This document shows positions 3,216 through 33,507 of a stretch of DNA of 64,000 nt, in pieces (the first letter of the stretch is position 1; each line of letters begins with the position of its first letter). The position numbers and the translations under genes are program-made. Under the pieces are notes generated by a model. That model was given only the letters and a program-made list of their open reading frames with translations. It searched no databases and had not been told where the DNA came from. This DNA comes from Betaproteobacteria bacterium (GTDB lineage Bacteria; Pseudomonadota; Gammaproteobacteria; Burkholderiales; Rhodocyclaceae). The stretch covers positions 3,350 through 67,349 of the forward strand of contig JACQYA010000118.1 in the NCBI GenBank assembly GCA_016208425.1, read 5' to 3'.

Positions 3216-3248
3216 GTCGATTCTCCCAGTTTGGATAAGCGAGTCATT

Positions 3249-3263
3249 GCAAGCCCCGTGCCA
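3249..3263 (-). promoter_or_regulatory. sigma54 -24/-12 promoter for iscA-nifU-nifS
   Basis: Minus strand reads TGGCAC-GGGGC-TTGC (perfect GG-N10-GC spacing), 34 nt upstream of the iscA ATG. Confidence 0.85.
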
Positions 3264-3319
3264 TGTTCCGATAACGATTTAACTAACTGTATTTATGTGG
3301 TTTTTGCTGCGTAGCGTTT

Positions 3320-3335
3320 TGTTGCAAACGCGACA
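3320..3335 (-). promoter_or_regulatory. NifA upstream activator site (TGT-N10-ACA)
   Basis: TGTTGCAAACGCGACA, about 57 bp upstream of the -24 element at 3263. Confidence 0.8.
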
Positions 3336-5124: not shown

Positions 5125-6516
5125 TTATTGCACCAGACCCGCTGTAGCCGGCGCGACGCGGTCTTGTCCACACGCTTCGCTCCGGTAGAGGGATCGGTAG
5201 GGTTCGGGTTCATGGTGTTGGCCCTGTATCAGGTTGGCGAGATCGAACAATGCCTGCCGCGTGCCACGGTATCCCGTCCAGGTGCGGGCGTAGCCGCCGA
5301 CCAAGTCGTACTGCGGAAAGCCGGCACGCAGCAGGGGCAAGCCCAGGCGGCGAGCGGTTCCGGCTGCGTGCGAGCTGGCGATCACGAGTTGCGCGCCGTT
5401 GGCGCGCGCCTCGATTTCCAGGTCTTCCAGGTCTCCGACGACGATTTTGGCAACCGGCGAAGCGGCCAGGCTTTCCGCCTTGGCCGGACTGACGGCGCCG
5501 ACAATCTCCGCGCCCATGCCGGTCAGGAAGCGGGCCTGCATGCCGAGCAGATCGGGGTCGGCAGCCAGCGCGACGCGCGCGAAGCCGATCATGAAGTGGC
5601 AGTCGACCATCGCGTCCTGTAACTGGGTGCGGTGACGCTCGATTTTTCCCGGCACCGGCTTGCCGGAAATATTGGCCAGCGCCTGCGTGAAGGCGTCGCA
5701 GTCGTCCAGCCCCATCAGGCCGGCAAAGCGATAGTCGGGAACGCCGGTGCGCGCTTTCAGGATGTCTGCCGCCTTGTGCAGCGAGGGGCCGATGACCAGC
5801 GTGGCGCACGATTCGCCCATGATTTCGATTTCCGAGCGCGGCGTGCCGCCGATGGTCAGCGCCGAATACTCGGCTCCGGTCAGATGACCGTCGAGCGAAT
5901 CGCCGATGTCGGGCACGACGACGGGGCGCAGGCCGAAGGCTTCGATCCACTCCTTGATCGCTTCGATGTCGCCCGGCGTGAGCATCGCCGACGCCAGCAC
6001 ATTGACCTGTTTCGCCCGTTTTCCGGCACTACCGCTTTCCGGCACCAGGGTTTCGATCAGCGACTCGACGGCCAGCGCGTAGCCGCTTTCCAGGCAGCCG
6101 ATGGTGTCCGGGGTATTGGCCGGCACCACGGCGACACACGCAAACTCGGGATGCGCGGCGCGGAACTCGCGCACGGCACGGCGGATGTCGGTGCCTTGCG
6201 TTTCGGACAGGCCCGTCGTCACCAGCCCGATGATGTCGGGCTTGCTCTTGTCCGACAGCGCGCGCAGCGCCTCCTTGATGTTTTCGTCGGCGCCCATAAT
6301 GGTCGACACCTGATCCATCGCCGTTGTCTGTAGCGGGATCGGCTCGCGGAAATGGCGCACGAAGAAGACCTTGCCGAAGGCCGTGCACCCCTGTGCGCCG
6401 TGCATCAGCGGCAGGCTGCGATCCAGCCCGAGAAAGGCCAGCGCGGCACCCATCGCCTGGCTGACCTTGAGCGGATTGACTGTCAGCGCCTTCTTGGAAA
6501 CCTCGATCTTGGCCAT
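5125..6516 (-). CDS. nifN: FeMo-cofactor biosynthesis scaffold NifN
   Basis: [65 protein letters not shown] is the typical NifN N-terminus. The track start at 6567 lies inside the sigma54 promoter, so ATG 6516 is preferred. Confidence 0.92.
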
Positions 6517-6551
6517 TTTGTGAGTCGCGTGACGATAACGACTGACTTCTA

Positions 6552-6566
6552 GCAAAGACCGCGCCA
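6552..6566 (-). promoter_or_regulatory. sigma54 -24/-12 promoter dedicated to nifN
   Basis: Minus strand reads TGGCGC-GGTCT-TTGC (GG and GC correctly spaced), 36 nt upstream of ATG 6516. Confidence 0.7.
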
Positions 6567-6610
6567 CGTCTAAAATACAATGCTTTCAATGGGATGTATC
6601 GTGCGCGCCG

Positions 6611-6626
6611 TGTCGTCAACGCGACA
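6611..6626 (-). promoter_or_regulatory. NifA upstream activator site (TGT-N10-ACA) for nifN
   Basis: TGTCGTCAACGCGACA, 45 bp upstream of the -24 element. Same extended pattern as the other five UAS in the window. Confidence 0.75.
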
Positions 6627-6674
6627 ACGAGCCAAAATATCCGTCATTTTGCCAACTCGCAGATACCGAATCCC

Positions 6675-6699
6675 GTCATTCCTGGCTCGCCCGGAATCC
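6675..6699. repeat. REP-like hairpin unit GTCATTCC..GGAATCC
   Basis: GTCATTCCTGGCTCGCCCGGAATCC. A second, related copy lies at 31588..31611. Confidence 0.5.
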
Positions 6700-6960
6700 T
6701 GTAGGCTCATCTGCGGGATTTGAAAAGGCCTGTTATCACGGCTTTCTTCTCTACTCCAGCATGAATCCACCCGCCGACGCCCCACTGACGGACATGACTT
6801 GCGCCTGCGACCTGTGAGTTGACACTCCTCCCTTTCTATTTGTCGCTACAGAATGACTTGGAAGACCCGGATTTGGTTCATGCGTTGCTGGCGATACCGG
6901 GAAAATGATTTCGCGTGTTGCGCGTGATTTACAACGAAACGAGGGAACCGGTTACGGTAG

Positions 6961-7293
6961 TCACGGCTTTCTTCGACGAACAGATAAAGGATCTATGAGA
7001 CTCGAATTCGACCCGTTACGCGGCGAAACGACGTGGGCCAACGCAGATAGCCCGGCGGGCTGCATCGTACGGGCCGCAGCATCCACCATCGTTGCTACCG
7101 CCTGGCGCATTTCATCGACCAGCACCGGCCGCATGGCCTCATACATTGCCGCACCGATTGGCGCATCGAGCTTGATCAGCTTGTCGTCTATGAAATCCTT
7201 GAGCGGACGGGTACCCTGTCGCGGCAGCAGGTTACTGCAGGGCAATGTCAATTTTTGTCCAAGAGACTGTCGGCCGAAGCGATGGCGATGCAT
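6961..7293 (-). CDS. Hypothetical protein in the nifE-nifN spacer (uncertain)
   Basis: ORF co-oriented with nifE/nifN. Its central part has GC-rich third positions (..LLPRQGTRPLKDFIDDKLIKLDAPIGAAMYEAMRPVLVDEMRQAVATMVDAAA..). No family recognised, and the start overlaps the start of the opposing ORF. Confidence 0.3.
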   Translation of the reverse strand: MHRHRFGRQSLGQKLTLPCSNLLPRQGTRPLKDFIDDKLIKLDAPIGAAMYEAMRPVLVDEMRQAVATMVDAAARTMQPAGLSALAHVVSPRNGSNSSLIDPLSVRRRKP

Positions 7294-7800
7294 GAAAGTC
7301 TGTATGCCCAAGCACTGATCCAGCGGGGTGCTGAAAACGCGGTCGGAGCCTACTGCCTGTTGAACTCCGCTACAGAAGCAATGATTGACCGTTTCCTGTT
7401 TTCTTTGTGTGAGAAAGTTGAGGCGTCCAATGAACTTGAACGCTTTTTGTTGGGCGAGTCGATCAGCACCACCTGCGAACTATTCAAGGCGTCGCCGATC
7501 GCTGTTGACCCGCCGCGCTCGGCCAATCCACCCTCGCCGTTTCAACGTCTGAAGTTTCTGCAGGAGATAGGAATTGTAAAACCTTCTGAGGTGCGGCGCC
7601 TTCAGAAATTACTCACGACCGTTCGCAACGACGGCATGCGCAATGATCTGAGTCACGGAAGAAAAGGCGGCATTCCTTCAGTTGCAGTCGACAACGCGAT
7701 AGCAGCATTTCGTGACCTCAGATCCGCTTTTCAGGCGCTGGGACAGATGAATGAACAAAACATCCGCGATTCTGACCCGGAATCCGGTTCCTTGATTTAA
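7282..7800 (+). CDS. HEPN/MtlR-like domain protein candidate (Rx4H motif)
   Basis: 172 aa from ATG 7282 (the track start at 7255 is TTG). Mid-GC, atypical codon usage. C-terminal LQKLLTTVRNDGMRNDLSHG contains RNDLSH (R-x4-H), preceded by the helical ..RLKFLQEIGIVKPSEVRRL.. pattern seen in HEPN/DUF4145/MtlR-type proteins. Confidence 0.5.
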   Translation: MAMHESLYAQALIQRGAENAVGAYCLLNSATEAMIDRFLFSLCEKVEASNELERFLLGESISTTCELFKASPIAVDPPRSANPPSPFQRLKFLQEIGIVKPSEVRRLQKLLTTVRNDGMRNDLSHGRKGGIPSVAVDNAIAAFRDLRSAFQALGQMNEQNIRDSDPESGSLI

Positions 7801-7853
7801 TTGGATTCCCTCCTTCGCGTGAACGACGAAAACCGGATTTATAGAAGTGCCCT

Positions 7854-9224
7854 TTATTTCACCCACGGTGCCGGCTTGCGCACGGCTTCCCAGACCGGGC
7901 TTTCCATCGACAACGCCAACTGGCGGGCGAGTTCGACCATGCCGGTGTAGCCGGCGTAGCCGAATTCGCGTTCCTGGTTGATGTCCAGGAAGGGGATGCG
8001 CGCTTTCAGCGCCGTGTAGAGATTACGCCCGCCGGCGATCAGGATGTCGGCGCGGTACTCGTGGTACGCGGAGAGCAACGCTTTCGGGCTACCGTCGTCG
8101 ATCATCGTCGTCTCGTCGCCCATCAGCTCGCGGATGCGCGCCTTGTCTTCCTCGGTGGATTTGCGCGTGCCGGTGGCGACGACCTTCATGCCGAGATCCT
8201 GCAGGGCCGAGACGACAGACCACGATTTGACGCCCCCCGTGTAAAGCAGCGCGCGCTTGCCTTCGAGCCGCCCGCGCCAGGGTTCGAGCGCGGCGTCCGA
8301 CCGGGCTTCCTCGCGGGCGATGATCGCTTCGGTGCGCGCGACCAGATCCGGGTCGCCGATCAGGCGGGCAAAATCGCGCAGCGCGCCGGAAACGTCCTGC
8401 ACGCCATAGAAGCTGCCCTCGAAGAAAGGGATGCCGAAACGCTCGTGCATCTTGCGCGCGACGTTGAGCAGCGCTTTGGCGCAAACGACCATATTCGCCT
8501 TGGCGCGATGCATGGTCTGGACGTGACGGAAGCGCGCATCGCCGGACAGCGTGCAGAGTATGCGCAGGCCGAGCTCGTCGAATAGCGGCGCGACGTGCCA
8601 GAACTCGCCGGCGATGTTGTATTCGCCGATCAGGTTCACGTCGTAGGTCGGCAGGCCGTCGGCGCGTGGGGCGGCGGGCGCCGGTTCGCGCGTGCCGATC
8701 ACATGCTTGAACATCGCCTCGCCGGCCAGCCGGTTGCCGAGGTTCTTGGTGCCGTAGAATCCGGCCGCGTCGACCGGGACGACCGGCGTGCCCCAGCGCC
8801 CGCTCGCCGCCTTGCAGACAGCGTCCAAATCGTCGCCGATCAGCGCGGGAACACAGGTGTTGTAGACGAATACCGCCGCTGGCGCATAGCTGTCGATGGC
8901 CTGCTTGATCGCCAGGAACAAGCGCTTCTCGCCGCGCCCCATCACGACATCGGTTTCCGACAGGTCGGTGGTCATCCCGATGCGGTAGAGCGCGATGCCG
9001 GAAGAGCGCGTTCCCCGGTTGTCCCACGACGACCCGGCGCAGGCGATCGGCCCGTGCACGATGTGCGCGACATCGGCGATCGGCAACAGCACGATCTGCG
9101 CGCCGTCGAAGGAACAACCGCCCGCCGTCGCGCCCGGCGCCGGCCGCGCGCAGCCGGATTTCTCCTTCGTGTTGTGGCTACAGGCCGGCTCGTCGAGCAG
9201 AGCCTGAATCTCGCTGGCTTTCAT
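7854..9224 (-). CDS. nifE: FeMo-cofactor biosynthesis scaffold NifE
   Basis: 456 aa. [25 protein letters not shown]...[37 protein letters not shown] is typical of NifE. Confidence 0.95.
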
Positions 9225-9254
9225 GCGGGTCTCCAGAGGTCTGGATTACCCTGA

Positions 9255-9269
9255 GCAAGATAGGTGCCA
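9255..9269 (-). promoter_or_regulatory. sigma54 -24/-12 promoter for nifE
   Basis: Minus strand reads TGGCAC-CTATC-TTGC (consensus), 31 nt upstream of the nifE ATG. Confidence 0.88.
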
Positions 9270-9311
9270 CCTATAGATTATTGTTTTTGCGGAAAAATAT
9301 TCTTTGCGGTT

Positions 9312-9327
9312 TGTCACAAAGGCGACA
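9312..9327 (-). promoter_or_regulatory. NifA upstream activator site for nifE
   Basis: TGTCACAAAGGCGACA. An AT-rich tract (9270..9300) lies between the UAS and the -24 element. Confidence 0.8.
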
Positions 9328-15080: not shown

Positions 15081-15116
15081 GGCGGTAATGTCGGGAGGGG
15101 TACGGTCACCCTTACT

Positions 15117-15131
15117 GCACGAGCCGTGCCA
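15117..15131 (-). promoter_or_regulatory. sigma54 -24/-12 promoter for rnfABCDGEH
   Basis: Minus strand reads TGGCAC-GGCTC-GTGC, 37 nt upstream of the rnfA ATG. Same -12 variant (GTGC) as the nifH promoter. Confidence 0.8.
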
Positions 15132-15215
15132 GCTCGGGGAGCGCGGCGAAATGCCCGTACCCGCGAGCGCTTCGCGGCATGCGCACCAGACCGGGGCGAA
15201 ACCCGGGCCGGAAAA

Positions 15216-15231
15216 TGTCGCGAACCCGACA
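15216..15231 (-). promoter_or_regulatory. NifA upstream activator site for rnf operon
   Basis: TGTCGCGAACCCGACA, 85 bp upstream of the -24 element. Confidence 0.78.
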
Positions 15232-33378: not shown

Positions 33379-33413
33379 GATGCGTTCTCCTGGGATGCTG
33401 TCGAGCCTGTTCA

Positions 33414-33428
33414 GCAATCGTCGTGCCA
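33414..33428 (-). promoter_or_regulatory. sigma54 -24/-12 promoter for the nifB operon
   Basis: Minus strand reads TGGCAC-GACGA-TTGC (consensus). Confidence 0.88.
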
Positions 33429-33491
33429 AGCCGGAGAACGGCTTTGATACAAGGGGTTGTGAGCTGTATGCCGCACCGTTTGTCGGGCTTT

Positions 33492-33507
33492 TGTCGCAAA
33501 GCCGACA
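33492..33507 (-). promoter_or_regulatory. NifA upstream activator site for nifB
   Basis: TGTCGCAAAGCCGACA, 64 bp upstream of the -24 element. Confidence 0.8.

Follow-up and report, generated by a model that had tools for sequence, protein, structure and literature searches.

The scaffold made up of NifE and NifN is an obligate heterotetramer, and their genes are normally adjacent and translationally coupled, or even fused, as in nifENX operons of the Klebsiella, Azotobacter and Azoarcus type. This report concerns the junction between nifE and nifN in a stretch of 64,000 nucleotides (the window) from a metagenome-assembled genome (MAG) of a betaproteobacterium (assembly GCA_016208425.1, contig JACQYA010000118.1, locus tags HY777_). 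The locus is like the canonical nifENX operon in that the same genes are present, followed by nifX, a gene for a NifX-associated protein and fdxN, and the coupled junction is also found in 23 of 80 related loci. It is unlike that operon in that nifE and nifN of the window are 1.3 kb apart, nifN being preceded by its own putative module of an upstream activating sequence (UAS) and a sigma54 element, and the NifE:NifN stoichiometry cannot use translational coupling. With NifA-dependent sigma54 promoters the putative nifN promoter shares both consensus elements in the correct order and orientation; it differs from them in a UAS lying only ~44 nt from the -24 element and in a -24 hexamer that reads TGGCGC, not TGGCAC. 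In the case of Klebsiella nifH, the classical UAS distance is ~100 nt or more. A promoter of the NifA/sigma54 type has been reported for nifE of Azoarcus BH72 (PMC3916325), as predicted here for nifE of the window.

The spacer also contains part of a gene with a probable HEPN-type domain. HEPN domains are marked by an Rx4-6H motif in which the arginine is followed by a polar residue (N, D or H) (Anantharaman et al. 2013, PMC3710099); the motif is located where one helix ends and the loop leading to the last helix begins (PMC3710099). The nearest described family is C6orf70/DUF4209, where DUF4209 overlaps the TPR-fused C6orf70 HEPN family (PMC3710099). It shares with the spacer gene an R-N-x3-H motif, the polar residue after the arginine, a near-invariant upstream glutamate and an all-helical domain, and the full-length relatives of the window copy are predicted to have a TPR-like N-terminus. 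Unlike C6orf70/DUF4209, the family found here carries an additional alpha/beta domain in its middle as well as a conserved CxxC, and the window copy is a C-terminal fragment. The HepT-MntA type VII toxin-antitoxin system has the HEPN fold and Rx4H in common with it, HepT being among the Foldseek matches, but no MNT gene is adjacent here and the full-length proteins are multidomain proteins of ~480 aa as compared with ~130 aa. As a site, the junction resembles genomic islets, with conserved flanks, unrelated cargo at one position and states that differ between near-identical relatives. It differs from islets in lying inside what is usually an operon for an essential cofactor-assembly pair and in being bounded on one side by the same promoter module every time; neither an integrase nor a boundary formed by a tRNA or repeat was found.

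From the analysis described below we think it likely that nifE and nifN of the window are separate transcription units, and that the spacer between them is variable filler with a decaying HEPN remnant and not a regulator of nif genes. The spacer would be a composite of two unrelated parts, a promoter module at 6517-6626 and filler at 6627-7853. The coupled and uncoupled junctions, the latter with a hypervariable spacer, are a more interesting result than the HEPN gene on which the preliminary description of this DNA was centered.

The putative promoter module in front of nifN

The preliminary description had placed the end of nifE at 7854 and the start of nifN at 6516, with 1.3 kb between them, and had noted that the insert is lower in guanine plus cytosine (GC) and differs in codon usage. 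Both observations were reproduced. The gap measures 1,337 bp, both genes pass their TIGR models (Table 1), and the nifN start codon is consistent with 80 relatives. The GC content is 0.52-0.60 in the insert versus ~0.65-0.69 in the flanks, and GC at third codon positions is 0.57 in the plus-strand HEPN open reading frame (ORF) versus 0.86 in nifE and 0.82 in nifN.

The 64-kb window was scanned for sigma54 elements with the pattern TGGCAC-N5-TTGCW, allowing at most one mismatch. Seven matches were obtained, all on the minus strand, and five of them have a TGTCG...CGACA site, an extended form of TGT-N10-ACA, 42-84 nt upstream. The TGGCGC-N5-TTGC and TGT-N10-ACA elements noted earlier upstream of nifN were found at the positions given in Table 1, and the pair is conserved in relatives. 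The predicted promoters of nifE and nifN are of the same design, and an AT-rich stretch resembling a site for integration host factor lies between the nifN UAS and the sigma54 element. Judged by the pairing of five of the seven matches in the window and by the conservation across relatives, the putative nifN promoter elements are more than a chance occurrence, and promoter activity and NifA dependence of the module are inferred from them. Comparison strongly supports the earlier proposal that nifN has its own promoter of the NifA/sigma54 type, and it gives good grounds for the idea that nifN need not rely on read-through from nifE, but it does not support the accompanying view that nifN expression was rewired in this genome, since the same form is common across Azonexaceae and Rhodocyclales.

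Four further pairs of the NifA type were observed in the window, at 3248-3335, 9254-9327, 15116-15231 and 33413-33507; they belong to iscA-nifU-nifS, nifE and two others. The nifN leader carries a small inverted repeat directly after the -12 element, ~24 nt 3' in L003-L077, which spans the expected start of transcription. The stems differ by lineage (TGAGAT/ATCTCA, AATGGAG/CTTCATT or AAAGGGTA/TACCCTTT) and include some G-T pairs, and the leader repeats fold at a mean z of -1.56 relative to shuffled sequences (49 distinct leaders).

Two forms of the junction in related loci

A total of 80 related loci was collected via NifN, and the distance between nifE and nifN was taken by tblastn. Protein identity of the flanks to those of the window is 78-93% for nifE and 66-85% for nifN. 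In 23 loci the junction is coupled, with ~10 bp (about 3-10 bp) between the genes or an 8-bp overlap, after the NifE tail ...AKQSGPGTVLAA*. Small gaps of 115-324 bp occur in six loci, three of them made up of palindromes resembling repetitive extragenic palindromic (REP) sequences or of other repeats, and gaps of 0.6-5.7 kb occur in 26. For the remaining 25 loci no nifE was present in the upstream DNA at hand, which extended over the full 6 kb in 17 of them. Overall, the distance ranges from ~40 bp by tblastn extrapolation (the true intergenic distance being ~10 bp) to more than 6 kb.

The promoter elements were then compared in the 56 uncoupled loci with enough upstream sequence, the window included. 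A sigma54 element together with TGT-N10-ACA precedes nifN in 51 of the 56, and neither element is present in any of the coupled loci (0/23). The geometry of the module is nearly constant, with 40-45 nt between the UAS and the -24/-12 element (25 nt in one locus) and 32-37 nt from there to the ATG (24-25 nt in two loci), and the sigma54 element of nifN is conserved in relatives as TGGC(G/T)CG-N4-TTGC. The five uncoupled loci without the module have gaps of just 148-366 bp. The module was also found in more distant loci of Sulfuritalea, Azoarcus and Zoogloeaceae. In Azonexus fungiphilus DSM 23841 (L062, 5883-6000) the 118-bp spacer consists of the UAS/sigma54 module alone without cargo, and so is the minimal uncoupled form.

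Some short spacers are small insertions that separate otherwise coupled genes. Those of L005 and L055 are 115 bp long with REP-like palindromes (GTTCCCGCGCAGGCGGGAAC...), and that of L029 is 162 bp long with other short repeats. L058 belongs to the coupled class and has a 58-bp spacer composed of five tandem copies of AAGCAATC. A nifN promoter is absent from all four.

Coupled and uncoupled loci are interleaved in the NifN tree. Two pairs of loci, L016 and L019 as well as L012 and L034, have NifN proteins that are 97% identical and yet differ in the junction, one member having a spacer of 2.5 kb or 1.8 kb with the promoter and the other being coupled. This contrast suggests that the form of the junction is exchanged by recombination. 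The promoter modules are closely alike in distant uncoupled loci, for example L016 and L009, the NifN proteins of which are 87.5% identical. On this comparative sequence evidence, the uncoupled junction is one of two forms circulating in Azonexaceae and Rhodocyclales, apparently old and shared. The earlier view of the split as stable and not a fresh disruption is thereby strongly supported by the related loci. No description of the uncoupled nifE/nifN form in Rhodocyclales was found in the searchable literature; an earlier mention is possible.

A widespread clade would accordingly use two separate NifA/sigma54 promoters and tolerate kilobases of unrelated genes between nifE and nifN. Given separate promoters and kilobase spacers, the NifE:NifN stoichiometry could be set without coupling, which is of relevance to the refactoring of nif clusters for transfer to other hosts. 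The clade also offers a natural system in which the acquisition of a promoter may have made the interior of an operon permissive to insertions.

Variable DNA between nifE and the module

In relatives the DNA between nifE and the module ranges from none to more than 6 kb and contains unrelated accessory genes. The ORFs in the gaps are poorly shared between genomes, the largest shared cluster being present in 10 of 51 loci. By Pfam, the cargo includes a methyl-accepting chemotaxis protein (MCP), a PAS histidine kinase, an enoyl-CoA hydratase, an enolase-family protein, a cytochrome c peroxidase, GNAT and FIST proteins, a PEP-CTERM/lectin protein, CitMHS with LysR, GGDEF and GGDEF-EAL proteins, a FixG-like ferredoxin and a TPR protein. 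Among ~30 cargo ORFs of relatives, none was recognized as encoding a transposase or integrase. In L011 the best tblastn match to NifE (179-958) covers residues 1-260 only, and an oppositely oriented MCP gene comes next. That MAG may have a truncated or frameshifted nifE, or the match may be split between high-scoring segment pairs.

In our reading of these data, the two co-circulating junction forms would be swapped with conserved nifE and nifN serving as homology arms, and the nifN promoter would let the interval tolerate insertions and deletions. A broader proposal can also be drawn from them. Coupled and uncoupled nifEN would be long-lived forms exchanged by recombination, the uncoupled interval would be a hotspot for accessory genes, and cargo exposed to read-through, the HEPN fragment included, might be co-opted into the nitrogen-fixation regulon. 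Taken as a whole this proposal is tentative, and we are more inclined to doubt it than to accept it.

A gene fragment with a probable HEPN-type domain

The filler in the window was first described as containing a 172-aa ORF with an R-x4-H motif. The plus-strand ORF and the motif, MRNDLSHG, are present as described, but the ORF is not a complete gene, as its first 296 codons are gone. A few dozen homologues were found among billions of proteins, and nearly all of the complete ones are 457-491 aa long. P0052 (476 aa) is the nearest of them at 85% identity, followed by P0057 (490 aa) at 80%, and the window ORF corresponds to the C-terminal 38-40% of this family of 476-490 aa. At the DNA level the identity to L083 is 87.6% over window positions 7214-7768. 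The homology sets in abruptly at ...GGGTAC/CCTGTCGCGG, between 7213 and 7214, corresponding to codon 296/297 in full-length copies, and no match to the first 296 codons of the full-length gene was found anywhere in the window. In the AlphaFold model of P0052, which has a predicted local distance difference test score (pLDDT) of 89.4, a TPR-like N-terminus (8-148) is followed by an alpha/beta domain (154-286), a disordered linker (292-296) and a helical C-terminal domain (304-475). The breakpoint falls in the low-confidence linker, and therefore exactly the C-terminal domain survives.

The full-length gene is solitary, its chromosomal surroundings are unrelated between loci, and it is often preceded by a gene of ~120 aa; in L087 the preceding gene encodes 104 aa with a weak match to HTH_3. 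Members at L083:3435-4907, L086:254-1684, L092:7001-8434 and elsewhere make up a family of ~480 aa without a Pfam model. The GC content of the family gene is 0.48-0.52 in every host, below that of its flanks. The low GC of the window ORF is thus explained as a property of a horizontally moving gene that is AT-rich everywhere.

The C-terminal domain is very probably of the HEPN type, with no curated family assigned. In an alignment of 50 full-length relatives the motif reads [LM]RNxxxHG, with R and H invariant and N, G, the upstream E and CxxC at least 90% conserved, and of the 79 family proteins in which the region is retained, nearly all have Rx4H. The AlphaFold2 model of the fragment has a pLDDT of 91.9. 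In this model the motif residues 143-149 are placed at the end of a predicted helix (140-147), followed by a loop and a long last helix (156-187). The leading Foldseek matches in the PDB include the HEPN toxin 7ae8, HepT (7bxo, 6m6u, 6m6w) and Csm6 (8jbc, 6tug). The top match was 2q00 (probability 1.0, E = 0.04, template modelling scores 0.43/0.63), and no PDB match had E <1e-3. The homologue P0008 matches the HEPN part of a PADLOC Csx1/Csm6 model (E = 1.6e-6), and the other PADLOC models with E <1e-3 for homologues are CARF+HEPN only. Below threshold, Pfam gave DUF4209 in six of 37 members of the family (best E 0.015) and HEPN_RiboL-PSP in two (best E 0.019). None of the members attained a Pfam gathering score, that of PF13910 (DUF4209/C6orf70) included, and the window fragment had no match at all to PF13910. 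The ORFs of the window had no HEPN match in Pfam, NCBIfam or PADLOC; the assignment therefore draws on the motif, the structure and the homologues. Searching PDB sequences with a profile of the family returned nothing relevant, and no significant Foldseek match was obtained for the middle alpha/beta domain of the full-length model, for which pseudouridine-synthase-like matches had E ~0.2. The HEPN call made from the motif thus gains from the structural and homologue matches, and the ~480-aa family with its TPR-like, alpha/beta and HEPN parts would be an uncharacterized addition to the known superfamily, without a Pfam model.

Alternatively, the truncated ORF might still encode a working HEPN RNase on its own, be it a toxin, an effector of abortive infection or a protein that modulates nif mRNA. 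Such an RNase would be made from the plus strand, perhaps curbed by antisense read-through from nifE. The ORF has an open frame between 7051 and 7800 that includes internal starts at 7255, 7282 and 7288, the motif has kept its R, N, H and G, the conserved acidic residue is also preserved, the fragment is modelled confidently as a complete domain, and the cut coincides exactly with the inter-domain linker. Short family members of 94-158 aa are present in a representative library, but these may be fragments on short contigs. Recognizable signals for expression are missing, however: no sigma70-like promoter was found in 6300-8000, and TTG 7255, ATG 7282 and ATG 7288 were already present as internal codons of the full-length gene, none preceded by a convincing Shine-Dalgarno sequence. 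There is no antitoxin or MNT partner; no MNT gene was found in 6517-7853 or beside full-length homologues in 11 loci. No copy of the remnant was found in any of the 80 related nifN loci, so it is absent from every other nifE-nifN gap. In a three-taxon decomposition with few substitutions, the ratio of nonsynonymous to synonymous substitution rates (dN/dS) was ~0.8-1.7, near 1, on the window branch versus 0.13-0.36 on the full-length branches. A stand-alone RNase is therefore unlikely. The preliminary description had offered a toxin or abortive-infection gene, or a regulator of nifEN stoichiometry, as functions, and these were not borne out for an ORF that is truncated, lacks a sigma70-like promoter, an obvious Shine-Dalgarno sequence and a partner, and is absent from 80 loci. 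Its other option, a remnant, is favored by the truncation, the missing expression signals and the dN/dS near 1.

Origin of the spacer

With nifE and nifN as separate transcription units on either side of variable filler, the locus probably works as follows. The 110-bp module would drive transcription of nifN, nifX, the NifX-associated gene and fdxN independently of nifE, and nifE would be effectively monocistronic, from its own promoter at 9254-9327. Owing to the nifN promoter, DNA between nifE and the module could be gained or lost without polar effects and the site would be permissive; we infer that the promoter is the cause of this permissiveness. In this genome the filler is made up of ~590 bp of other DNA and the 3' third of a gene of ~480 codons that is low in GC and horizontally mobile. 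The HEPN fragment is most likely an unexpressed, decaying and non-functional remnant without a nif role. Read-through from nifE would give at most RNA antisense to the HEPN fragment. As the minus strand showed no terminator-like site in the nifE-nifN interval, such antisense read-through over the fragment is likely.

Several observations weigh against this account. Given the same absence of a terminator-like site, nifE and nifN may be co-transcribed. There is no close relative of the MAG for comparison: NifN of the window is at most 85% identical to NifN of Dechloromonas, Azonexus and other Rhodocyclales. As to the age of the cargo, the 24-mer over the breakpoint 7213/7214 had no other occurrence in metagenome contigs, and ~590 bp of the spacer gave no match in the searches made. 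The dN/dS estimate comes from very few substitutions with an unresolved topology. The remnant keeps an uninterrupted frame of 195 codons and every catalytic-type residue, and the cut at the domain boundary may be a sign that a stand-alone HEPN domain has been selected for.

A recent insertion of a mobile element that split a coupled nifEN operon, with polar disruption, would account for the lower GC and the foreign codon usage of the insert. It could also account for the end of nifE. In a comparison of C-termini with more than 50 relatives, NifE of the window ends ...KPAPWVK* and alone is without the ~11-residue tail (e.g. AKQSGPGTVLAA), which is kept by every one of these relatives, coupled and uncoupled alike. 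The missing tail places a breakpoint of rearrangement inside the 3' end of nifE (7854-7900). However, the nifN-proximal 110 bp are a clade-wide promoter module and not foreign, nifE and nifN are both intact, and no transposase, integrase, tRNA, terminal inverted repeats or target-site duplication were found. The cargo is already truncated, which implies a later deletion and some age; together, the missing NifE tail and the truncated cargo point to deletions after acquisition. A recent insertion is thus very improbable. That the insert is an artefact of assembly or binning, a chimeric join of nifE and nifN contigs, is scarcely credible, despite the origin of the window from a MAG, the composition of the insert unlike its flanks and the absence of the breakpoint 24-mer elsewhere in the metagenome contig collection, because nifE, variable DNA, module and nifN lie on one strand in dozens of independent assemblies, isolates included, and the promoter module runs seamlessly into nifN.

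Other features of the spacer and its flanks

The coordinates of the features are collected in Table 1.

Table 1. Features of the nifE-nifN region and predicted sigma54/UAS pairs of the window (positions in the window)
Feature	Position	Strand	Remarks
nifN	5125-6516	-	ATG at 6516; TIGR01285 (NCBIfam equivalog), 591 bits
nifN leader with small inverted repeat GTCAGTCG...CGACTCAC	6517..6550	-	
Putative sigma54 -24/-12 element of nifN, TGGCGCGGTCTTTGCT	6551-6566	-	35 nt before nifN ATG; one mismatch to TGGCAC-N5-TTGCW
Putative NifA-type UAS of nifN, TGTCGTCAACGCGACA	6611-6626		TGT-N10-ACA; 44 nt upstream of -24 element
DNA without detectable homologue	6627..7213		~590 bp; GC ~0.55
Short imperfect inverted repeat	6675..6699		Called REP-like earlier
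110-aa hypothetical ORF HY777_09860	6961..7293	-	5' end overlaps HEPN remnant on opposite strand
3' remnant (last ~194 codons) of 476-490-codon gene	7214..7800	+	tblastn and blastn homology; intact C-terminal HEPN-like domain
Candidate starts of remnant ORF	TTG 7255, ATG 7282, ATG 7288	+	172 aa from ATG 7282, end 7800
HEPN motif RNDLSHG (MRNDLSHG 7636-7659)	7639..7659	+	R 7639-7641, H 7654-7656
Spacer between convergent stops of nifE and HEPN remnant	7801..7853		53 bp; no terminator-like site found
nifE	7854-9224	-	TIGR01283 (NCBIfam equivalog), 695 bits
Putative sigma54 element of nifE, TGGCACCTATCTTGCT	9254-9269	-	Pattern scan
Putative UAS of nifE, TGTCACAAAGGCGACA	9312-9327		42 nt from sigma54 element TGGCACCTATCTTGCT
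Predicted sigma54/UAS pairs	3248/3320, 6551/6611 (nifN), 9254/9312 (nifE), 15116/15216, 33413/33492	-	

For the DNA at 6627-7213, no homologue was found by tblastx against the 80 nifN loci and 13 loci of the HEPN family, or by blastn and tblastn against plasmids. A metagenome scan with a 137-aa plus-strand ORF of this region gave nothing, as did megablast of the whole insert against plasmids and an Rfam scan of 6300-8000. The 110-aa ORF, co-oriented with the nif genes, which had been put forward as a possible gene, matched only itself among 5.8 billion proteins and had no match in Pfam, NCBIfam or PADLOC; it is unlikely to be a gene. As regards annotation, both 'hypothetical proteins' of the spacer can be reassigned: they are thus one gene fragment and one ORF that is probably no gene.

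The inverted repeat at 6675..6699 does not deserve the REP label, its fold being no better than that of shuffled sequences (z = -1.2) and its copy number in the 64-kb window being one at up to three mismatches. An insertion sequence, transposon or integrative element was also considered for the insert and rejected, as its ORFs include no transposase or integrase and neither a target-site duplication nor meaningful terminal repeats were found. The repeats within the insert are short and weak (10-21 nt) and compatible with chance. An exact 11-bp direct repeat, CCTTGAGCGGA, is present at 6465-6475 in the 5' coding region of nifN and at 7197-7207, 6 bp before the breakpoint; ~0.3 such repeats are estimated to be expected by chance in 1.6 kb, and no weight is placed on it. 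In the flanks, the genes 3' of nifN are nifX, the gene for the NifX-associated protein and fdxN, then iscA-nifU-nifS, and 5' of nifE lie rnfC...rnfE-rnfH.

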